Assembly (NCBI RefSeq): GCF_043381705.1
Contig: NC_092205.1
Coordinates: 57,580,995 to 57,615,479 of the forward strand
DNA length: 34,485 nt
Reading direction: 5' to 3'
Source of the DNA: Parasteatoda tepidariorum
Taxonomy: Eukaryota
Below the pieces are notes generated by a model. It saw nothing but the letters and a program-made list of their open reading frames with translations, was not told where the DNA came from and did not search any database. This document shows, one piece after another, positions 5,135 to 34,485 of the stretch (the first letter of the stretch is position 1; each line of letters starts with the position of its first letter). The translations under genes and the position numbers were made by a program.

Positions 5135-7378
5135 TTAAGGTGAAGAAGCAGGTGTTGGAGTATTTACAGCTGTAGAGGCAGGCTGTGGGTATGGGGATTG
5201 TTGAAAATTAGTTTGAAGATTATCACTTTCTGTAGTAGGTTGAGAATGTGGAGTTTCAGGATTAGTTATTTGTTGTTCTACAGGTGTTGGAGGAAGATTC
5301 TGAGAATCTTCTCTTTGTGGTGTAGTGATATGGAGAATTGCAGCTTGAAGGTTGGCTACTTGAAAATTGGCTGCTTCAAGAAGAGCCTTTTGAAGATCAG
5401 AAATTTCATTTAGAGCTGCTTGAAGATCAGCTATTTGCATAGAGTTGTTTTGAACTGAATCTTTTTCTTGGTTTGTATTTTGAAGAGGAGGTTTCTGGGG
5501 TTCAGTTTCAATATCTTGTTTTTGCAATGCACATTGTGAGGGGTCAGCCTGCTGTATTGAGTTAGCTTTGAGGTTTTCAACTTGGGAAAGAGTAGCTTGC
5601 AGCCGAGCCAACAGGGAAGGAGCTTCTTGTAAATGAACTTGTCGAGAAAGTACAGTTTGAAGCTGTGCCAAATGAGATGATGCCATCTGAAGTTGATTCA
5701 TTTGAGCTGGGGATGCTTGGTGGTGAGCTATTTGTGGAGGAATATTTTGACGATGCTCCATTCGAGGAGGAGTCGATTGGTGATGGTTCATTTGGGTGGA
5801 ATCCATTTGAGGATACCCCATGTGATGGTGACTGGCTTGCTGTCGATTGACTGGAGGGGCATTGCCTTGATGTCGTTCCATCATCTGCACATTTGGTGGA
5901 TAACGATTCATGTAATGAGGATTAACACGATTATGGGGCATCTGTGAGGGCAATGGTTGAAGATGATTGGGTCGAGAAGTCATTTGAGGGTGATTCATTT
6001 GTGATGGCATATGTTGTGAATTCTGAGAAGGAGGCATCTGGTAATGAACTGCATGATGACGAGGCATCTGAGCTATATTTTCTTGGTGTTGGCTCATATG
6101 TGATGTATTAGACTGAAAATGACTTCTCTGTGACGTTGGTGGGAAATGAGGAGCCATTGCATGTCCTTGATTCATGTGGGGAGCATTTGTTTGATGATTA
6201 TCTATATTAGGATAGTTAGGTTTATAATGAGGTGGATATTGTTGACGAGGTGACATTTGAGGTGGAGGGGCTGTTTGATGGTGAGAAATTTGTGCTGCAA
6301 CAATCTGCGAATTAGTAGTTTCAGTAGCATTTTGCTCATGATGAGGTCTTAATTGTTGCATAGGTGTCTGACTTCGTGGAGCTTCATGAGGTGAAATAAT
6401 TCTTGGTGGATCTGGTCTTCTACGATATTGTCCAAGTGTAAAAATTGATGAAGGATTGGCACGAGGTAAATATATTGTTATTTTACCTTCATGATAATGT
6501 ATCCTACAATCCATAACTGATATTGCATTAGGAAGATAAAAATAAAATTGGTGATTTGTTTTATTTTCTCTAATAAATAGCTTCTTTCGAGAAGCAAATA
6601 CTTTAACATCTCTAGGATCTAAAAAGGAAAAATATGGCAGAACTACTTGCAACATGAAACCTTTAAATTCTCCTTCAGCAGGAAATTGTCGGATCTCGTA
6701 TTCAATTGAAGGATTTTTAATGTCAAATTCTGGCTTGCGTTCTGTATGAAATTTCCTTATTGTTGTATTTATGGTGAAAGGATCAGAGAAGTATGGCTCT
6801 TTATTATTTCCTTCTTCTGATTTGGACAGAACACCTAATCGTTTGTATACATTTCTCAAAGATTCTGGCATAGTCCCATGATAAAACTTCTTTAACAATT
6901 CAAATTCTTTTTCTAATTTAATGTTATACCTATCATAAATAGCTTTACATGCTGTTTGATATAGGTAATTAAGTCTTTGATCACGGTGACTGTGAGAAAG
7001 TATAGAGTCCATAAATTCTGTTTGAATTATTGTATCATAGCATATGCAAATTTTACCATTTTCATCTCTATCTACACGTTCATCATCTAAATATAAATTA
7101 AATCTTAGAATCGATTCATCTCCACGACTAGTATGAATTTTTGAATTATAAACATTGCAATTTGGTAATTCGAGAGAGTGACAAATATTAATGTAAGCTG
7201 TTTTGTTTTGTTGCGTTTTTCCTTGGAAGCAAAATCCTGGAACAGTAACTAGTGATGGACATTGACTGTGTATTATATTTTTATTTTCTGGGCAAGTAAA
7301 GTCATAGGATTGATCGATTAAGCTATAATCGTAAAGCACTTCATAAAATTTTCCATCTGAACTTCTATTTTCTGCCAT
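5135..7378 (-). CDS. PIH1-domain protein (Kintoun/PIH1D family). It has an N-terminal PIH1 domain and a CS-like beta-sandwich, followed by a ~400-aa Q/H/P/M-rich low-complexity tail that ends in a short coiled-coil-like segment. It appears to be a single coding exon.
   Basis: The ORF track gives a 747-aa uninterrupted ORF. The hallmark N-terminal PIH1 motif is present as VTVPGFCFQGKTQQNKTAYINICHS, where human PIH1D1 has QPQPGFCIKTNSSEGKVFINICHS. A further block, ICICYDTIIQTEFMDS...RYNIKLEKEF, matches PIH1D1's CTAYDVAVNSDFY...KYNLQLNPEW. A CS-like region follows (EYEIRQFPAEGEFKGFMLQVVLP...KITIYLPR). The family is identified by recall, not by a search. Confidence 0.8.
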   Translation of the reverse strand: MAENRSSDGKFYEVLYDYSLIDQSYDFTCPENKNIIHSQCPSLVTVPGFCFQGKTQQNKTAYINICHSLELPNCNVYNSKIHTSRGDESILRFNLYLDDERVDRDENGKICICYDTIIQTEFMDSILSHSHRDQRLNYLYQTACKAIYDRYNIKLEKEFELLKKFYHGTMPESLRNVYKRLGVLSKSEEGNNKEPYFSDPFTINTTIRKFHTERKPEFDIKNPSIEYEIRQFPAEGEFKGFMLQVVLPYFSFLDPRDVKVFASRKKLFIRENKTNHQFYFYLPNAISVMDCRIHYHEGKITIYLPRANPSSIFTLGQYRRRPDPPRIISPHEAPRSQTPMQQLRPHHEQNATETTNSQIVAAQISHHQTAPPPQMSPRQQYPPHYKPNYPNIDNHQTNAPHMNQGHAMAPHFPPTSQRSHFQSNTSHMSQHQENIAQMPRHHAVHYQMPPSQNSQHMPSQMNHPQMTSRPNHLQPLPSQMPHNRVNPHYMNRYPPNVQMMERHQGNAPPVNRQQASHHHMGYPQMDSTQMNHHQSTPPRMEHRQNIPPQIAHHQASPAQMNQLQMASSHLAQLQTVLSRQVHLQEAPSLLARLQATLSQVENLKANSIQQADPSQCALQKQDIETEPQKPPLQNTNQEKDSVQNNSMQIADLQAALNEISDLQKALLEAANFQVANLQAAILHITTPQREDSQNLPPTPVEQQITNPETPHSQPTTESDNLQTNFQQSPYPQPASTAVNTPTPASSP

Positions 7379-9920
7379 ACTGGCAAAAAAATTCCTCCTG
7401 ACTTAACAAGATTTCTAGGCATACATATTTTTCTTTATAATTTTTAATGTAAGCTTGTTACCTTTTTAAAAATTATCATTCAACATTCAAACAGCTTAGA
7501 AAATAATTATATGTAACTTTTCTTAGCATAAAATACAAATAATGATCAATCAGTATTAGCTCTCTGATTACTTAGCAATAATTTTAAAAAAATGATTAAT
7601 TATAGTGTTATTAGTTTCTAGTTATATTTATTAGAAAAATAAAGCATCCGTAAATAGAGAATATTATGTGATCTCCTTATTTGCTAAATAATGAATAATA
7701 GAACCAAAACTAAACAATAGCAGACGTATGAGATACATCTCAAAAGGAAAATAAGTATCTGGCAATATAAATGAAGTGATGGTATGAGGCTTTTTACTAG
7801 CACGCAGTCATTTATAAAGTTTTTCGTTATAAAAATATTTATTTTTACATTTAATCGTGAAAGTGCATTACATTTTTGAAAAACTATGTCGCAAAAATTA
7901 TTAATTTAAATAGAATCGGGAAGGCTATCGCAGGAAAAAAATAAATTATAACTCTCTAATATTTTTATAACTCGTAACCGTTTCGTTTTTTGTTTCCAAC
8001 AAAAACAAAAGTAAACAAACCGGGTAGAATGTAATAGAGATGTTAGGTCTAGTAACAGATCAGTTAATATCGGCATTACCAACAAAAATATGAATTCCAT
8101 TTTTTTTTTTTAATTAAAGGGGGAAATTTTGCACAGGTTGTCAAAAAGACTGGAAAAAATACGAATTTTTTCTTGACCTTACGGGATTCTAAAACAACAC
8201 ATCAAAATTGTAACTAATTGTATAACACTGAAACTAACTCAAAATTTCAAGGGAATAAAAAACAGGTCATTTTTATCTTCAGTCATTAGAGTAAGTGGAC
8301 ATTCAATTTGGCATAAGATAACTCCAATCCTAATGACAATATTTTAAAATCAGAATGTTCTTTAATCTCTAGAAATGTGTAAAGTTTCAAAATATTTAAT
8401 TAGTAGAGTTATGACAGTGAGAAGCATACTCTGAGAAAATTTTCGGAAACAAAATTTAAGGGATATTATCATAACCACGGCAAGTTGGCGAAGAGTCGGC
8501 GGCAATTATAAAGATAACTTCATGAAACAAAGGAAAATATGATAAATCCTATATCCGGACGTTTGTTTCCGGGAAGGGTACACTTTCCGATCATTTTTAA
8601 TGTGAGAGTAAAGAGTTAAGTCAGACGAAAAATAAAAGTTATAATTGAAAATTTTTATTTTCTCTTTAAATCATTGACAAAAAGTAAACTGAAACATTTG
8701 TGCCAATGTGTTTATTCTCTATTAAGTTAATCCCTTAATAATTTTTAAATTCAGTTGGAGCAAAATGTGAAATCTTCTCTGTTTAATGAACAGGTGCAAA
8801 TCATGTTTTGTTTTGAAATTTTGTCTTCAGGTATTATCTTATATCTTGCTTGTTCCTTTGGACAGTTAAGTTTTCTTTGCTAATTAGTTCCTGTGGAGTT
8901 GGGTGTAATTGTAACTGTGATGTAATTGTTTTCCTTTCTCGTATTCTTAATTATTCCCTTGAATTAATTTTTAATGGAGGAAAATAATTTATATTTTTCC
9001 TTATAAATTTGAAAAAGAATTAAAATAAAAAATAGTTGTAATGTTTTCTTTTTTCCAAATTTATTTTTGTTTAAATACATTTTTTAATGATTATTCCTAT
9101 TTAAATTAAAATTTTTTAATTTTTATTAATTAATATTGTTATTTATTTATTTTTGCTGTTGGGGGAAATTTTATGTATTTTTTTGGCCTAAAATTGTTTT
9201 TATTTGGGGTCCATTATTTAAATTTTTTTTTCCTGAATACAAAATGAATGATTATATTTTAATTTGATGTTATTTTAATTAATTTTACTGTAATTATTGA
9301 ATAAAAAATAATTATGTATTTTGCATATTTGGTAGTGTTTGATCTTAGTTTTGGCTTTATTAGGGACCATATATAGCCTAGACAAATTATTTTTTTTTCG
9401 AATACAAGAAAAATAATCATACTTTTCTTTAATCTTCATTAATAATATTTTTTACAGTTATTTAATCAAAAATATTTACAATTATTGTGAATTTGGTTGA
9501 ATTCGTTCTTTGTTTTGACATACCTTTTTTGATTGGGGATCTATTACCTAGAAAATATTTATGAATGCAAGTTAAATTAAATTTATTATACTTTTTGAAA
9601 GAGAAACTTTTTTTTTAATTGGCTGATTTTGTAATTCTTTGATGTGACTTTATTTTGTTTAGTGACTTGTAAAGTATTTCCTGCATATAGATATATACTA
9701 ACAATCATACTTTTATATGACCTCTCTGAAGTTAATATAACAAAAACATTTTAGTCTTTCAATTTAATTTTACTTTTTGCTTTATCAAGTCTAGTCAATT
9801 TACTGTCTTAATGTTGCTCTTAGAAATTAAGGTTGTAACTTTTCACTTTAATTTAAAAGTAATGTTTTTAAAACAGTTGTTATAATTCTATTTCTGATGT
9901 TATCTATTTCCATAGGAATA

Positions 9921-10078
9921 ATGCCGAGTGATAAAAGTGGTGTCCCTGCAAGTCAGGGCAATGATAAGAGCATTTATCGCATACCTCCGTACATGTATAT
10001 GCATGTATTGGATCAGACTGCAAATGTCACTAGAGTTGAAGCAGGTCCAAAGACATATGTGCGGCAAGAGAACGAACG
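9921..10078 (+). CDS. MVP: Major vault protein, coding exon 1 ([53 protein letters not shown]). The exon ends in phase 2 with a CG|gtaaag donor.
   Basis: Aligns to the human MVP N-terminus ([37 protein letters not shown]). The ATG at 9921 has an A at -3 and sits just after a possible acceptor, tttccatag at 9915. An in-frame upstream ATG at 9897 would add MLSISIGI and is considered less likely. Confidence 0.85.
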
Positions 10079-11061
10079 GTAAAGAAAATTATTTCTTCTG
10101 TTTCAACATTATTATTGGTATTTTAAATCTTTTTGCTGTTTAGATTTAGTTGCTTTTAAAGACATTAAAAGCACTAAGTGCTCTTTTTCTTAAATCTTAA
10201 ATAAAATATCAGCTCTTTCTCCTTCATCTATTCGTACAAAAGTTTTTAAATAGATTTGGATAATTGCTTAACATTAGTTATAAAATCATAGCATATGAAG
10301 TAATCAAAACATCTTTATACTGAGTCATTAAAAGGAAACTGGCAGTGTTCAGAAATTCATACGTGTGAATCTTTTGAAAGTATCTAATAAAACCTTAAGT
10401 GCATGTTGCATCGATCACTATAGAAAAAGTTTAAAGCTTCATTGATGATCTGGTGCCGTGCTGTTAAAATTACATGCATATGTTCAGTACACAAAGAAAC
10501 CCACCCGATATAGCTTTTGATCTAGTGAGTGGATCTTCATATACTTTCAAATACACCTTTTTACAACAAAAAAAAAGTCTATTTGATTTAATAATAATCA
10601 TTTTAAAGAATGTAAATTGTGTGGTAATTGTGTGTGAATGTAAATTTGTGGCAAAATCCAAAATTTGAACGACATCGATTGAGTAGCTCCTGAGAAATAT
10701 AATTTTAAATATACAATTTTTTTAAATTAGGTTTCGCAGGAACCAACTGATTTTGTTCAAATTTTTAATTTTGTCATATGAAATTACATTTTTTTATTAA
10801 TATTAAATGAAATAGTAATAAAAAATAAAACAATTGGGTACAAATGTTTGTATGATTCTCAGATTTTTTTTATAGATCTTGGATATTTTTACATTTCTGA
10901 TTTCAAATCAGCAATCAGTTTCTCCGACAAAGCTGCAGTTTGTTTAAACGATATTTTTAATCTATTTTTTGTCGAAATGTACCAGTTAAAAAACATAATA
11001 TGTAGTGACGGCCGCATAAATGTCGCAACAAACTCTTAGGGGAGTTAAAACACAATATCAC

Positions 11062-17203: not shown

Positions 17204-17252
<49 letters not shown>
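17204..17252. repeat. Mononucleotide (T)49 run, which reads as poly(A) on the minus strand.
   Basis: Direct count from the sequence. Confidence 0.95.
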
Positions 17253-20577: not shown

Positions 20578-20868
20578 TAACTTAATTATACTAAAATTTA
20601 TTTTATCATTAAATGTTTGATTAGCCTCTCTTAACTGGAATGTCAGTAGAATCAACAGGTTTCTTTTGAATATCTCTGTATAAAGAAATGAAGTTATTTG
20701 GAAAAAAAGTACAAATTTTAATTATACTAAAAAAATTTTTTTGATCATTAAATGTTTGATTAACCTCTCTTAACTGGAATGTCAGTAGAATCAACAGGTT
20801 TCTTTTGAATATCTCTGTATAAGGAAATGAAGTTATTAGGAAAAAAAGCCTCATTTTATTGAACCTCA
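20578..20868. repeat. Tandem duplication, two copies of a ~139-bp unit, immediately downstream of MVP exon 9.
   Basis: aatgtttgatta(g/a)cctctcttaactggaatgtcagtagaatcaacaggtttcttttgaatatctctgtataa(a/g)gaaatgaagttatt... occurs at 20612 and again at 20751. Confidence 0.85.
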
Positions 20869-23616: not shown

Positions 23617-23860
23617 GCATGAAGCTGAAAGACGAGAACAAGAAGCCAAAGGTCGCCTTGAACGTCAGAGAATATCTGATGAAGTAGAAGCTGAAAAAAC
23701 TCGAAAGAATTTGTTAGAGCTGCAAGTTGCCAGAATGGCCATTGAAAACTGTGGTCAATCTAAAGCTGAAGCTCTGAGTCGTACTGAAGCTCAACGTATT
23801 GAAGCTGAAGCTGCCATTGATCAAGCCAAGGCTAAAGCAGAAGCTAAACGCATTGAAGCT
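23617..23860 (+). CDS. MVP: Major vault protein exon 12 ((R)[81 protein letters not shown]). This is the C-terminal coiled-coil cap-helix region.
   Basis: Acceptor ttttgcag|G, donor GCT|gtatgt. Aligns to human [81 protein letters not shown]. Confidence 0.85.
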
Positions 23861-25871
23861 GTATGTATTAAAGTATTCTTTTTCTTAAATTCATTGCTTT
23901 GAAGCAGATATTCAAACTGGTTTGTCTATAAAGGCCAAATTTAAGTTTGTTAGATCAAACTGGAAAGTTCTAAATGCCAGATAAACGGCAATTAGCGGAG
24001 GGGGAAGTGAAGTTGCAAAATATTTAAAAGTTTTATCAAAATTCAATATTTTTTTTTTGGACATGGAATATTAATGCTTGCAACTTCAATTACTATAAGT
24101 AGTAATTTCCAGAGGTTTAAAATGACAGCTAAATTTAATAATTGCAAATGAAAATAATGAAGCTGTATTTTAAAAGTTAACAGGGATCGTATTTTCCCTA
24201 AAATTTTTCTAAAGGTTTTTCACAACCTCTAAAATACTAAAATTTTGCAGTTCCTAAAAAATGGAAATTATGTGAGAAGTAATGATTAAATCTCTCAAAT
24301 TAACGTTCTACTCTAATCAAATAACTAAATCTGGGTTGCACCGATCTAACAGCTAAGTGCTTCAAACACATAAGAATTTACTTGTTGAGAGAGCTATCAG
24401 CATTGTGCTTCATTTCTTAAGCTTTCATTGCTCGTAATCATTTTAAAACATTTTCATAGCGTTTTCAAGGTAAATTACTTAAAATACACCTACTTCCTGT
24501 TCAGTAAAATAAATAAGTTGATCAGCATGTTATATGCAATTCATACAGGCCAGTATTGTTGCTGCCACGAAAGGCAGATATAAGGTATAACGAAATTGAT
24601 AATGGTAAGAATTGGAAACAATTCTATTTAAATTGGTATGCTAGTTGAAATTTTTTAGTTAACTTAACAAAGAACAATAGCGAAAATATTTTCGTGAATG
24701 TTTTTTTCTACAATTATTTAAAACTCGGAATTATTTAAAATTTTACTTACTTTTTTCTGATTAGTTTTTCAAGCACTTAGAATTTTTCGACATGGAAAAA
24801 AAATTGAACAATAGTACAAAAAGTGTGCTTGCAATTTCCAGAATTGTTCGTTATTGAAATTTTTTGAAAGAGTATATTGACAGTGTTAGGTATTAATGGA
24901 AGCTATAAATATTTTATGTTAGTACCCATAAGAAACTATCTTAATGCAGGTTTATGGATATTTGATGAAACAGATTCTTTAAGATATTATCTAAAATGTG
25001 AAAAATTAATTGCATTAATATAAACCATTTTAACTTTTCAAACTGAGAATCCTGAAAGGGGTTTTTGATAAGTAAAGCTATGCTCAGTGTTAGTCACAAT
25101 GAAATGAAAATACTATTTTATGTCTCATATTGGTGAATGATACTCAAAATTATAAAGGGGTATTAAATATACCTTTCACATTAGCACTACTTTTGGCAGT
25201 GAAAGATTCTCATAATTCATACCTGGAATTTAGTAGAATAGTAAAATAAGTTATACTAAGTAATAAATTTAAAAACTAATGAATAAAAAAATGAAAAATT
25301 TTGATTTACAGATTCGTGAAAGTAGCCAAAAAACTAGACATTGGCCTAACAAAATAATGAACAGAAAGATTGAGAAAAGCTGCAGTGTCTCAAAATATTG
25401 TAGAAATGATGGTCTCATATACTTTTAATATCTAAAAGAACTGATTAGCTACAAAATTCGGAAAAATGTCGAGACATGGATTCCAGAGTCTCGAACTTAA
25501 TGTCAATTCCAAAGATATTAAGTACTAATTAAGTACTAATATTATCACTACCAAAGTAGAAATCTGAGATGGTAGAACTACAAAATATAGAATCAGAAAT
25601 GACTGTCTTCAAAACTGTGAAAGAAATATTGAAAAAGTGACTGAAAATTAAATATTGCTTCTAATTTTTAACTATAATTGAAATTTAATAGTAAACAATA
25701 TTTTTTGTTAAAATAATTAGGTAAAAATAAAGTTTCGAAGTAGTCATCAAATTAATGTTTTTTTCTTAAAATTTCTCTAACATCTAATAGTCTACCACGA
25801 AGTTATAAGGCTATGTAGACCATTTGTTTTATGTATTTAAAAAAATTACTATTGCCATTACCATTTGTTTT

Positions 25872-26427
25872 AAAAAAATTACTCGTAATTTGTGAATATG
25901 AAATAAACGATAAGTCATTCTTTCAACCAGGGTCCTGCTTTTATGAATTTGTGCAAATAGGGTCCGGTTATAGCAACAAAAAAAATTCAAGGAGTTTTTA
26001 AATTGTAAAGAGATAGGAGATTATGCTCAACACTGTAAAATTATAATTAAAAAAATTAAATTTTAAAAAATAAACAACAATTGCTGCTTCTAAATTAGAG
26101 ATGCAACATACAAATATTTGGTATTTAGCCTATACTGCTGAACGCAGAATATTAATTTCGGACGAATAATGGAAGAATCGTCTGCCGAAGACAAAACTTA
26201 ATTCGTTTACATCCATCTTTCTTGTTTTCTGCCCTGGAAAGGGTTTATTCGATTAACAAAATAATAATGAAGATAAACAAATTTGTGAAGGGTCCGATTA
26301 AAAGAAAAATTATTTTGTGAAGGGTCCGTTTTTAAGTTAAAATATTTTGTGAAGGGTCCGTTTTTATGAAAAGATATTTTGTGAAGGGTCCGTTAACGGA
26401 CCCAAATTTCTTCTAAACAGACCCCTG
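25872..26427 (+). mobile_element. Related copy A of the same CAGGGG-TIR element family. It is 5'-truncated with no 5' TIR. Before its 3' terminus it carries an expanded 3' subterminal array of four ~32-bp TTTTGTGAAGGGTCCG(A/T)TTTT repeats, followed by the palindrome GGGTCCGTTAACGGACCC.
   Basis: Core homology to copy B (attctttcaaccagggtcc...gggtttattcgattaaca) and an identical 3' terminus ...ggacccaaatttcttctaaacagacccctg. Confidence 0.55.
26281..26400 (+). repeat. Tandem subterminal repeat array, 4 copies of a ~32-bp unit (a/t)TTTGTGAAGGGTCCG(a/t)TT(T)..., inside copy A.
   Basis: Unit starts at about 26281, 26313, 26345 and 26377. Confidence 0.7.
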
Positions 26428-26741
26428 CCTAATAACTTAAATTTTAATAAAATTTTTACTTCATAGCTACTTTTACAAATTATGTAGAATTTAGATAAAT
26501 ATATGTCTTTATATTATAAGGTAGTTTAATGTAAGTAAATAGGTACTATCAGTGTATGTTGATTATTCCACTCATGAAATGCCAAAATTAAAGTCACGAC
26601 CTGCTTATATGAAATCCACTATCGTTAACCCCGATTTTCATTTCATGGACCCCCAATTTTTTTTTCGCTTGACATGGACCCCTTGCAGGTTGTCATCGAC
26701 CCCTGAGGATCGATATAGACCACTTTGGGAATCAATATAAT

Positions 26742-27177
26742 CAGGGGTCTGTCCAGACATTTTGTGAAAGGTCCGTTTTTCGTGAAATTGTGAAAAAATT
26801 ACTCACATTCTTTCAACCAGGGTCCGCTTTTATGAATTTGTGCAAATGGGGTCCGATTGCAAAAAAAATTTTTTCAAGGAGTTTTTAAATTGTTAAGACA
26901 TGCAAGATTATGCTCAACACTGTAAAATTATAATTTAAAAAATTAAATTTTAAAAAATAAACAGCAATTGCAGCTACTAAATTAACGATGCGACGTATAA
27001 ATATTTGGTATTTAGCCTATACTGCTGAATGCAGAATATTCATTTCGGACGAATAAAGGTCTGCCGAAGACAAAATTTAGTTCGTTTGCATCGGTCTTTC
27101 TTTCGCCCCTCCCTTCTAGGAAGGGTTTATTCGATTAACAAATTAACGGACCCAAATTTCTTCTAAACAGACCCCTG
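26742..27177 (+). mobile_element. Nonautonomous TIR element (copy B, 436 bp) with terminal inverted repeats CAGGGGTCTGT...ACAGACCCCTG and one subterminal TTTTGTGAAAGGTCCGTTTTT repeat. CAGGG termini are hAT-like. Flanks are degenerate, aatataat on the 5' side and caattaat on the 3' side.
   Basis: The 5' end caggggtctgtccagac and the 3' end ctaaacagacccctg are reverse complements. The internal core is about 85% identical to 25872..26427. Confidence 0.6.
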
Positions 27178-27384
27178 CAATTAATATTTTTTTTTTTTTT
27201 AAAAAATTTATGATTAGAGATTGTCTTTTAGCACGCCTTTAATTATTTCTTTTTAACTACTTTAAAAACTGTTGAGGATCAAATTCAGTTATTACATAAT
27301 ATTACACAATTAGATAAATTTTTAAGGTGTTATGTAGGAGCTTCTTCAAAATTCAAACTGTCCTTTCCTTTTTTTCAGGTAGAA

Positions 27385-27860
27385 CTTTAGATATCAAACA
27401 GTCTCTCTTATTTTAATACAATCAACAGAATAGATAGAAAGAAATGCACCTTCCAAAGGAGATGATCAAATTAGAATTATACAATAATGCATGGGTACAA
27501 AATAGTGATTAAAAATTCATATAAAAACAGTTAAATTAAAGTTTCACACTATTGCTAAATATCAAACATTCTCTTCCACTGTTCCACTGTTAAAGTTCAG
27601 AAATACCAACAAAATTTTAAACACTGTTGTACTACCAACAGAACAGATAGGAAAAATATGTACAACCCCCCAAGGAGATTATAAAATTAAAATTATACAA
27701 TAAAGGGTGGACAGCACAGAATAGTGATTAAAAAAATTATATTAAAGCAGTGAAAGCTACATATTATTGCTACATATCAAACATTCTCTTATTTTAATGA
27801 TCCGGTGTTGAAGTTACAGAAATACTATCAATAAAATTTTGCTACACCATTCTACAATCA
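27385..27860. repeat. Tandem repeat, about 2.5 copies of a 170-215-bp unit (...atatcaaacattctctt...caacagaatagatag...ggagat.atcaaattagaattatacaataa...atagtgattaaaaa...).
   Basis: The anchor atcaaaca(t/g)tctct recurs at about 27392, 27561 and 27776 with similar flanking sequence. Confidence 0.6.
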
Positions 27861-27874
27861 ACGGAAGGATCCTC

Positions 27875-27940
27875 TTTTATGAAAAGATATTTTGTGAAGG
27901 GTCCGTTAACGGACCCAAATTTCTTATAAACAGACCCCTG
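27875..27940 (+). mobile_element. Solo 3'-terminal fragment of the CAGGGG-TIR family (subterminal repeat, then GGGTCCGTTAACGGACCC, then ...ACAGACCCCTG).
   Basis: tttatgaaaagatattttgtgaagggtccgttaacggacccaaatttcttataaacagacccctg is near-identical to 26362..26427. Confidence 0.55.
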
Positions 27941-28561
27941 TATAGATACGAATAATCTTCCCATTTTGCCATTAAATATGGCTTACTCAATATGTTAGAC
28001 AAATTTATTAATATGCTATCTAGAGTATGTGTTTTCAATTTTACAAGTCAATATTAATATAATGAACTGCAGTGTAAGGTATTTTTATCTTAACTAAATC
28101 GCTCCCAAATTTTTTTTGGAGAATATCCTTCAAATGCATCCTAATATATTAAAAAAAAAAGTAAATACTGCCAATAAAAAGTGCTATAATTTTAATGACT
28201 AGAAACCAAGGTTTTTAATTTAATCTCAGATATAATTAATATAATTTTACATGGGAAAATGCAAAATTTGAATGAAATCTGTTGAATAGTTCCTGAGAAA
28301 TGGAATTTTAAATATCTAACTTTTATTTTTTGAAGTCTGTGTTCTTTACACCCTAGGCTGCTGTAGTACTGGGTTGTCACTAAATAGGGAGAATAAGGAA
28401 AACCTGGAAAATAGATGGAATATAAAAATTATCTAAATTAACAGCATATTAAATTTTTCCTTATAAACTAGGAAGTGCAGGGAATTTTATTCTTTAACTT
28501 ATAGTGTTTGTATTCTTTAACTTATAGTGTTTAGTGAAGTGTTCAATAAACTTGCTTGTAA

Positions 28562-29337
28562 CAGGGCTCGAAAAACCACCCGTCCTCGGCGGTCAAAAAT
28601 TCCCCACGGACAAAAAATTTCTCTAATCCAGCGTCCGCGCGGACGGCCGTTTTCCCGTAAATGTTCGTGATACATTTTAAATTTTTTTTATCTTACAAGA
28701 GTCTACCGCCTCACTTCTAAAATGACCCTCTGATCTCGAAATACAGCAACACACTGTGCATGGTGGAATTGATGTTTTCTCTGTCAGGGAGTACTGCAGC
28801 GGTTGAAAGGGGCTTTTCAGCAATGAACTTACAAAAAAACACATTACTTACTGGTCTTAAACAAGAAGCGTTAAACGCATTTATGAACATCTACCTAAAT
28901 GGAAAACCTCTTTCAGATTTCTGTGCAGAAACCTCTGTAAAATATTGGCTTGATTGTGGAACTGGCAAACGTCATATTTGATTCATTTAAAAAACGCAGT
29001 ACCATCGGATAAATTGACATAATTGACAGATAACTTAACCTTTGTTATTTAAATTATTTCATCAAAGAAATAAATTATTTCATAATAGAAATACTAGGTT
29101 TTACTAATAGTACCCTAGTATTTCTTTTATTACTGTATAATGTAATCCTAGTATTTGTAATCGTAATAACTACTAACTAATTCATTGTGCAATTTATATA
29201 AATGTTTGTAATAAATAAGAGAAAATTATATTTTTATTTATTTAGAAGCGACGGGTTAATTTCAAAGGAGGATGGGTAAATTGTTGGACAAGCGGTCCTC
29301 GGGGACGGGTAAAATTTCTGAGTTTTTTCGAGCCCTG
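28562..29337 (+). mobile_element. Nonautonomous, internally deleted hAT-superfamily DNA transposon of 776 bp. It has a perfect 8-bp target-site duplication GCTTGTAA (28554..28561 and 29338..29345) and roughly 16-bp terminal inverted repeats CAGGGCTCGAAAAAAC.
   Basis: The 5' end reads cttgcttgtaa|CAGGGCTCGAAAAACCACCCGTCCTCGGCGGTC and the 3' end reads GCGGTCCTCGGGGACGGGT...TTTTTTCGAGCCCTG|gcttgtaata. The ends are reverse complements of each other. The CAGGG terminus and 8-bp TSD are hAT hallmarks. An internal ORF encodes a hATC dimerisation-domain remnant. Confidence 0.8.
28760..28981 (+). pseudogene. hAT transposase C-terminal dimerisation-domain (hATC) remnant, 73 codons. It is all that is left of the transposase after an internal deletion.
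   Basis: The ORF track protein ...LSGSTAAVERGFSAMNLQKNTLLTGLKQEALNAFMNI... carries the conserved hATC signature S-x-x-x-x-ER-x-FS followed by a hydrophobic R/K..L....L..L pattern. The BED and RNase-H-like domains are absent. Confidence 0.7.
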
Positions 29338-29377
29338 GCTTGTAATATACTAACATATTCATTCTTTAATTACAAAG

Positions 29378-33828: not shown

Positions 33829-34485
33829 CAGTAGACGCCGCTTAATGTGATCACATCGGGACGAACATGATTTGATAACAATAACCGATTGATTACAATA
33901 AACAAAAAAAAAAGTTAAGCTAAAAAATGATTTTTTTTACATACGTATTAAAATAAAAAATATTTTAAATTAGGAGTTGTTGCTGTAAGACTCTGAAGTA
34001 TTTAATAGAAATTAATGTACACTAAAGAAAAAGTATTAGTATACTCACATATTTATTGATAAACTGCAGAAAACAATACAAAATACAAAAGGTTAATTAT
34101 TAACTGAAAAAGAAATCATCAATTGTCGATTGTTTAGCATTCTTTCGAAGCAATTCATTTACGAATCGCTCATAATCATAATGTTTATGAAAGTGTTCCG
34201 CGTCGGCTTTGTTTTGCACACCTAGCCGTAAGACTCGAAGTGCCTCCCTCATCTGAGCAGGCGTCGGAATTTTGTCCTCGATAGCACTTTCAGATTCATC
34301 ATCGGCATCAGAATCTTGTGACGAAGACACATCTGACACATATGGTTTCTGATGGTGATCTTTGACACATATGGCTTCGCAAATGTCCTCATCAGTTAAC
34401 GAAGTAGAAGTCTCAACCTTCTCGTCGATCTCCATCCATGCTTCAAAATCCTCAGCATTCATATCGGGCGGGGGATTGAAAACGT
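33829..34485 (-). mobile_element. pogo/Tigger-like (Tc1/mariner superfamily) DNA transposon, 3' portion. The element continues beyond the window end. Its terminus CAGTAGACGCCGC abuts TA within a (TA)n tract (TA at 33827..33828).
   Basis: A minus-strand ORF encodes the acidic C-terminal tail typical of pogo-like transposases. About 270 bp of non-coding sequence lies between the stop codon (34100..34102) and the CAGT... terminus next to TA, which fits a pogo TA target site and CAGT-type TIR. Confidence 0.55.
34100..34485 (-). CDS. pogo/Tigger-like DDE transposase, C-terminal 120+ aa. It is partial, and the ORF remains open to the window edge.
   Basis: The ORF track gives MNAEDFEAWMEIDEKVETSTSLTDEDICEAICVKDHH...SDADDESESAIEDK.... 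This acidic tail with the ...EDF..W...TSLTDE(E/D)I..A(I/V) motif is characteristic of the pogo family. The 23 nt upstream in the same frame (VFNPPPD) contain no stop. It is homologous to the decayed fragment at 16262..16400. Confidence 0.6.
   Translation of the reverse strand, partial: VFNPPPDMNAEDFEAWMEIDEKVETSTSLTDEDICEAICVKDHHQKPYVSDVSSSQDSDADDESESAIEDKIPTPAQMREALRVLRLGVQNKADAEHFHKHYDYERFVNELLRKNAKQSTIDDFFFS

Follow-up and report, generated by a model that had tools for sequence, protein, structure and literature searches.

A cluster of probable hAT-type non-autonomous transposon copies in an intron of the major vault protein gene of the house spider Parasteatoda tepidariorum

Results

The stretch of DNA analysed here (34,485 nucleotides, positions 57,580,995 to 57,615,479 of contig NC_092205.1 of the house spider Parasteatoda tepidariorum; hereafter the window, numbered from its first base) is AT-rich eukaryotic sequence with a GC content of about 28%, and it carries a cluster of short, related, transposon-like pieces, called here copy A, copy B and the stub. 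Vault and MVP-shoulder domains were detected in open reading frame (ORF) fragments of the window, and a protein search led to the major vault protein (MVP) isoform X2 of P. tepidariorum (XP_015912405.1). A tblastn alignment of this protein to the window yielded 14 exon matches, collinear and all on the plus strand, between 9.9 and 32.0 kb. Identity was mostly 97-100%; where it was lower, the alignment overhung the edges of exons. These matches identify the window as the house spider MVP locus. The cluster is located within a 5.5-kb MVP intron, between an exon end at 23860 and an exon start near 29369, and its features are listed in Table 1.

Table 1. Features of the transposon cluster in the MVP intron (window coordinates; TIR, terminal inverted repeat; TSD, target-site duplication)
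Feature	Position	Strand	Remark
Copy A, long form, 5'-truncated, non-autonomous	25826..26427	+	blastn, alignment to copy B
Four tandem 32-bp subterminal units	26270..26397	+	in register, core TTTGTGAAGGGTCCG invariant
Perfect 18-bp palindrome GGGTCCGTTAACGGACCC	26386..26403		24 bp from copy A 3' end
Terminus read as that of a related but distinct element	26629..26705	-	CAGGGGTCGATGAC then two GGGGTCCATG motifs
Left copy of candidate TSD of copy B, CAATATAAT (8 bp + 1-nt insertion)	26733..26741		edit distance 1
Copy B, complete short-form element, 436 bp	26742..27177	+	both 11-bp TIRs present
Right copy of candidate 8-bp TSD of copy B, CAATTAAT	27178..27185		edit distance 1
Solo 3' stub of long-form (A-type) copy, 77 bp	27864..27940	+	94.8% to copy A, E 4e-30

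The two TIRs of copy B, CAGGGGTCTGT and ACAGACCCCTG, are complementary at 11/11 nt, and the match continues at 88% over 16 nt. Copy A aligned with copy B from 25916 to 26264 (positions 65-405 of B; 84.7% identity over 353 bp, E 1e-109, blastn), its last 35 bp are 100% identical to B and its 3' TIR, ACAGACCCCTG, ends at 26427. The upstream limit of copy A is graded: the similarity to B is secure from 25916, weaker from about 25868 and possibly extends to 25826 via a local duplication of about 40 bp. At this 5' edge, a 12-nt match (AAAAAATTACTC) was reached in 0/500 shuffles and the extended match had a p of about 0.01. The first 32 bp or so, corresponding to the 5' TIR and the first motif, are missing or mutated beyond recognition. 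A degenerate 5' TIR at about 25808 was considered for copy A and was not significant. In the stub, 1.5 subterminal units are left, with the palindrome and the 3' TIR. Divergence is 15% between A and B, and 5% between A and the stub.

In a three-way alignment, the homology of A, B and the stub ends exactly at ...ACAGACCCCTG (...CCCCTG), and the bases past this point are unrelated (CCTAATAA, CAATTAAT and TATAGATA for A, B and the stub, respectively). This shared stop, followed by unrelated flanks, indicates a true mobile-element terminus that has been used at least three times. No further family copy was found in the remaining 32 kb or so of the window. The cluster contains no ORF longer than 62 aa and has no protein homology beyond the exonised copy in the MnmE gene described below.

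Between A and B lies a fourth terminus on the minus strand, with an exact CAGGGGTC at 26698-26705 and GGACCC at 26647 and 26676. It stands back to back with the 5' end of copy B, 36 bp apart, and inward it ends at an uncertain point, about 26580-26630. It agrees with the family of A, B and the stub in the terminal 8 nt and in the motif GGGTCC, and is otherwise weakly similar to positions 99-129 of copy B (16/500 shuffles). We read it as a probable fragment of a related family.

An earlier note on this DNA, made from the letters alone, had already described much of this anatomy. Its copy B with both TIRs, its copy A lacking the 5' TIR but having four units of about 32 bp and a palindrome before the 3' TIR, and its inverse motifs with an extra terminus between the two were all recovered. 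The solo 3' terminus that it reported is also present, but measures 77 bp and not 66. Its assignment of the pieces to one non-autonomous TIR-transposon family agrees with the alignment of A to B, the extra terminus being the piece that appears to come from a related family.

The heptamer GGGTCCG occurs 11 times in the window, against 0.18 expected, and all 11 occurrences fall within 25960-27916; of the window's six GGACCC sites, five also fall in the cluster. Such clustering indicates a signal that is not low-complexity noise, and the objection, foreseen in the earlier note, that the similarities might only be AT-rich matches fails on this count as well as on the E value of the A-B alignment. 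In copy B, GGTCCG is found in direct orientation at 26770, 26821 and 26850 and, as CGGACC, inverted at 27147, some 25-30 bp inward from each TIR. Although not strictly defining, an arrangement of this kind, with short subterminal repeats that face opposite ways at the two ends, is typical of hAT elements.

In copy A the motif is part of the tandem array, which Tandem Repeats Finder reported at 26282-26394 (period 32, 3.5 copies, 87% matches). A 15-nt core, TTTGTGAAGGGTCCG, is constant in 4/4 units, against 11 variable positions among the 17 of the spacer; the chance of the core escaping all 11 variable sites is 9.6e-5. The core thus seems to have been under constraint, as a protein-binding site would be, and the array is a putative transposase-binding array; the comparison of the units is thus in favour of the view that these subterminal repeats look functional, which the earlier note had proposed.

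The array unit of copy A is 95% identical, in the same orientation, to the 5' subterminal unit of copy B (ATTTTGTGAAAGGTCCGTTTTT, 26759-26780), a likeness indicating that the long form amplified a 5'-type unit beside its 3' end. Where the last direct unit abuts the inverted 3' motif, the junction makes the palindrome GGGTCCGTTAACGGACCC, which is also present in the stub at 27899-27916. The last 1.5 units are common to the stub and copy A, and two units are common to the MnmE copy; the array thus characterises a long-form subfamily and is no local expansion in copy A. A metagenome scan with the 18-bp palindrome gave four matches, all of them GC-rich prokaryotic hairpins unrelated to the family.

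Two forms of the element can therefore be described. The long form (copy A, the stub and the copy in the MnmE gene) consists, in order, of the 11-bp TIR, GGGTCCG motifs, an AT-rich non-coding body, the 4 x 32-bp array, the inverted motif and the 3' TIR. The short form is represented by copy B, which is without exactly 128 bp, the array, between ...GATTAACAAA and TTAACGGACCC. Copy B lost the array by a deletion bounded by TTAAC microhomology.

The flanks of copy B, CAAT(A)TAAT and CAATTAAT, match at 8/8 positions with a single 1-nt indel, a match equalled in 0.4-0.5% of 200,000 random position pairs from the window. They contain no TA, TTAA, TWA or 3-bp duplication, and a 9-bp reading requires the indel. 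The TIRs of hAT elements follow a 5'-YARNG rule; the start of the family TIR, CAGGG, satisfies it, and the TIR is short, as in hAT elements (about 10-25 bp). Mutator-like elements have TSDs of 9-11 bp and long TIRs beginning with G, CACTA elements have 3-bp TSDs and CACTA termini, and PIF, Tc1-mariner and piggyBac elements have TWA, TA and TTAA duplications, respectively. The CAGGGG...CCCCTG termini and the flanks of copy B lack these signatures, and none of these five groups is supported. Several bona fide hAT families of Anolis that have 8-bp TSDs, among them hAT-HT2_AC, have TIRs opening with CAGGGGTC (PMC3014272, Table 1).

To look beyond the window, the stop-free six-frame segments of A, B and the stub were concatenated and searched against 5.8 billion proteins. 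There was a single match, the tRNA modification GTPase MnmE isoform X4 of P. tepidariorum (P0003; E 3.5e-6). Residues 2-38 of this isoform (DPSQNNLSFNQSLHKLVYLHYCFVNRINPSRGRRRKK) align with the minus-strand translation of copy A at 26210-26392, with 70% identity and 89% similarity over 37 aa, and the part of copy A that matches includes two subterminal units together with body sequence next to them. Records place the MnmE isoform cluster on a contig of 91 Mb and MVP on one of 105 Mb. Together with the match, this places at least one more copy of the long form at a locus unlinked to MVP. It appears that this copy was exonised as an alternative first coding exon of MnmE isoform X4, the other explanation being an artefact of the gene model. 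Homology that ends at the termini, seen in the three window copies, and a copy at an unlinked locus, that in the MnmE gene, together mark a multi-copy transposon, and the possibility that the family is single-copy, which the earlier note had named as an objection, falls with at least this one further copy. A literature search with the TIR and palindrome strings returned primer matches only, and one combining Parasteatoda and hAT returned nothing specific.

A second transposon is present in the same MVP intron. An internally deleted hAT element of 776 bp (28562-29337) lies 620 bp downstream of the cluster, its 3' end 31 bp upstream of an MVP exon. Its TIR, CAGGGCTCGAAAAA... (CAGGGCTC...), starts with CAGGGNTC, and it is flanked by a perfect 8-bp TSD, GCTTGTAA, at 28554-28561 and 29338-29345. 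It retains a 73-aa remnant of a hAT dimerisation domain at 28760-28981, which scored 12 bits against Pfam PF05699; a 56%-identical relative of this remnant (P0002) scored 23.6 bits against the same model, above the gathering threshold, and adjoins ORFs with zf-C17orf113, DUF4371 and FAM200-ZBED5 domains. The TIR, the TSD and the domain remnant together indicate that hAT elements of this TIR type have been active in this genome. The neighbour resembles the cluster family in its TIR start, CAGGGNTC, in having GC-rich inverted subterminal motifs (ACCCGTCC / GGACGGGT) and in its intron, but differs in its perfect TSD and its domain remnant and shows no similarity past the first few TIR bases, and it is therefore assigned, from this comparison, to a different family from that of CAGGGGTCTGT.

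In public contigs, homology to relatives of the neighbour stops exactly at ...CCCTG, and one relative of 88% identity was seen at a single locus in four public samples (L002-L005), its differences lying mostly at CpG sites. Another relative is a fragmented ZBED5/Buster-like hAT transposase at 8162-10270 of an ENA contig from another eukaryote (L001; 35% GC), whose fragments carry zf-C17orf113, DUF4371 and the hAT dimerisation domain, with a PIF/Harbinger DDE_Tnp_4 ORF nearby. No recognisable CAGGG-type TIRs were found around the L001 fragments, and this contig therefore gives no link between the TIR type and a transposase clade.

Discussion

We consider it quite probable that the cluster in the MVP intron is made up of old and inactive copies of a single non-autonomous DNA transposon family, most likely hAT. 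The common terminus with unrelated flanks, the concentration of GGGTCCG motifs and the unlinked long-form copy are the evidence for a transposon. With about 15% divergence and no ORF, the copies are now inert intronic DNA. For the family of CAGGGGTCTGT, hAT is the best-supported superfamily and probably the correct one. Among the candidates named in the earlier note (hAT, Mutator and CACTA), hAT was retained on the YARNG start, the CAGGGGTC terminus, the candidate TSD with an indel, the motifs inverted between the two ends and the hAT element nearby; Mutator and CACTA were disfavoured for want of their signatures.

Several points weigh against this interpretation. Both ends are found in copy B alone, and its TSD is imperfect (one indel), comes from a single locus and can be read as 8 or 9 bp. 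The hAT clades Buster and Ac prefer nnnTAnnn and nTnnnnAn as target sites, and the candidate TSD of copy B departs from both preferences. No transposase could be linked to the family termini; residual doubt about hAT is due to this and to the one two-ended copy. Binding of a transposase to GGGTCCG is suggested by its conservation and position. The exact 3'-end pattern GGACCCAAATTTCTTNTAAACAGACCCCTG had 0 matches in metagenome, viral and prokaryotic genome collections.

The same anatomy could belong to another superfamily that has TSDs of 8-10 bp and subterminal sites, such as P or Mutator-like elements. The flanks of copy B can equally be read as a 9-bp duplication minus one base, and here too the missing link to a transposase counts. 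Duplications of 8 bp are also made by P elements, and subterminal repeat arrays occur in several superfamilies. The TIRs of Mutator-like elements, on the other hand, are usually long and start with G, and those of P elements start with CATG, while the 11-bp CAGGG TIR of the spider family fits the YARNG rule of hAT. A demonstrable hAT element with a near-identical TIR start is located only 620 bp away, and CAGGGGTC is documented for hAT (PMC3014272). We therefore regard another superfamily as unlikely.

A different question is how the pieces came to lie together. The earlier note had proposed repeated insertion into one another or abortive gap repair. Nested insertion was not supported: A, B and the stub lie side by side, no copy interrupts another, the gaps of 314 bp and 686 bp are of unrelated sequence, the 3' flanks differ, and the flanks of B and the stub are unlike family members. 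A reading of the 5' end of copy B and the 3' end of the stub as one element of 1.2 kb was also dropped, the flanks being at edit distance 3. Abortive gap repair is plausible and was borne out in part: the TTAAC-bounded deletion of 128 bp in copy B fits that mechanism and is its sole concrete trace.

Local hopping with abortive repair could explain the clustering, and so could local rearrangement. In the latter case, one insertion would have given rise to all three pieces through segmental duplication and deletion, or through linked ends transposing in an aberrant or alternative manner. All family pieces of the 34-kb window lie inside 2.1 kb, the four 3'-type termini point the same way, and local tandem duplications are present (about 40 bp at the 5' edge of copy A and about 215 bp abutting the stub). 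Yet the same orientation of four ends has a probability of 1/8 for independent insertions, the DNA past each 3' terminus is unrelated, showing that the flanks were not co-duplicated, and the unequal divergences (15% for A-B, 5% for A-stub) point to different source subfamilies and ages. The different flanks and unequal divergences favour separate events, and rearrangement of one insertion appears improbable to us.

It could also be asked whether the cluster has a function in the intron, as a structured RNA, a hairpin precursor or a cis-regulatory array of sites at which proteins bind GGGTCCG, and is not transposon debris. The predicted RNA fold of copy B was better than that of shuffled sequences (z = -3.96) and the units of the array share a strongly conserved motif core. 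However, the fold merely pairs the TIRs and the inverted motifs, which it would do by construction, and the terminus-defined homology, the different flanks and the copy at another locus are signatures of a transposon. The cluster gave no Rfam match at E up to 1 and no tRNA. Structured-RNA, tRNA and short interspersed nuclear element readings were dropped for these reasons, and we find a functional element very hard to credit.

If the copies are hAT elements, their transposase would have been encoded elsewhere and, like others of this superfamily, would have had a BED or other zinc finger, an RNase-H-like DDE domain and a C-terminal hAT dimerisation domain. With its N-terminal DNA-binding domain it would have bound the subterminal sites that contain GGGTCCG. 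It would then have paired the CAGGGGTCTGT ends, excised the element and reinserted it, leaving an 8-bp target duplication. The truncated copies and the microhomology deletion could be by-products of interrupted double-strand-gap repair, or of aberrant transposition near the donor site.

A similar combination is known from the maize hAT system Ac/Ds, in which subterminal AAACGG repeats bind the transposase and deletion derivatives arise from abortive gap repair, both of which have been demonstrated. The spider family shares with Ac/Ds a short hexamer-type motif repeated within about 100-200 bp of both ends, as well as internally deleted derivatives with junction microhomology and fractured ends near intact copies. 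The motif, GGGTCCG, and the TIR are different, and in the spider family we infer both the binding and the repair origin.

Closer in the termini are Charlie/Buster-type non-autonomous hAT elements or miniature inverted-repeat transposable elements (MITEs) of Anolis (hAT-HT2N_AC and hAT-N4_AC; PMC3014272, Table 1), which have the same first 8 nt of the TIR, CAGGGGTC, and are alike in having short TIRs of 11-16 bp, and a non-coding length of a few hundred bp; their TSD is of 8 bp, for which copy B has a candidate with one indel. They differ from the spider family in the TIR past position 8 (TGT vs CCCAAAC), and the pattern NTCTAGAN/NNNTANNN is not matched by the candidate TSD of copy B. Unlike these elements, the spider family has a 4 x 32-bp array in its long form, a spider host and no identified autonomous partner. 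Human MER30-type elements also belong to this group with CAGGGGTC TIRs.

In biological terms the finding is an ordinary one: a well-known kind of transposon has gained a new or unnamed member, and automated repeat libraries for P. tepidariorum probably include the family already. What is added is a hAT-like non-autonomous family in an evo-devo model spider, for which the termini, a candidate binding motif (TTTGTGAAGGGTCCG) and a long and a short form can be given. MnmE isoform X4 would be one example of a transposon copy recruited as an alternative first coding exon. The definition of the family may aid repeat masking and the interpretation of isoform models in P. tepidariorum, with little import beyond annotation. 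More speculatively, and with rather less confidence than in the family assignment itself, these copies could be an undescribed spider hAT MITE lineage in which the long form has a 5'-type binding unit amplified into a tandem array at its 3' end; one whole element and three broken ends, all of the same orientation within 2 kb, would then be the trace of local hopping accompanied by aberrant or abortive transposition, and the family would add coding sequence to host genes, as in the first exon of MnmE.

Other features of the window

The second gap of the cluster (686 bp) includes a tandem duplication of about 215 bp (27417-27866; 74% identity), which directly abuts the stub and has no similarity to the transposon family. 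Other small repeats were seen in MVP introns: a 139-bp tandem repeat at 20582-20848 (1.9 copies, 93% matches), a run of 49 T at 17204-17252, and a 73-bp segment that occurs in two introns (28252-28324 and 10649-10721; 82% identity) and probably represents another small repeat family.

Two ORFs were also seen on the minus strand. Upstream of MVP, and on the opposite strand to it, an intronless ORF of 747 aa (5135-7378) matches the PIH1 N-terminal domain (E 5e-12) and has a long tail rich in Q, P and H. At the other end of the window, an ORF of 120 aa (34100-34462) with no Pfam match has an acidic, serine-rich stretch and ends in ...KQSTIDDFF, which resembles the C-terminus of pogo/Tigger-type transposases.

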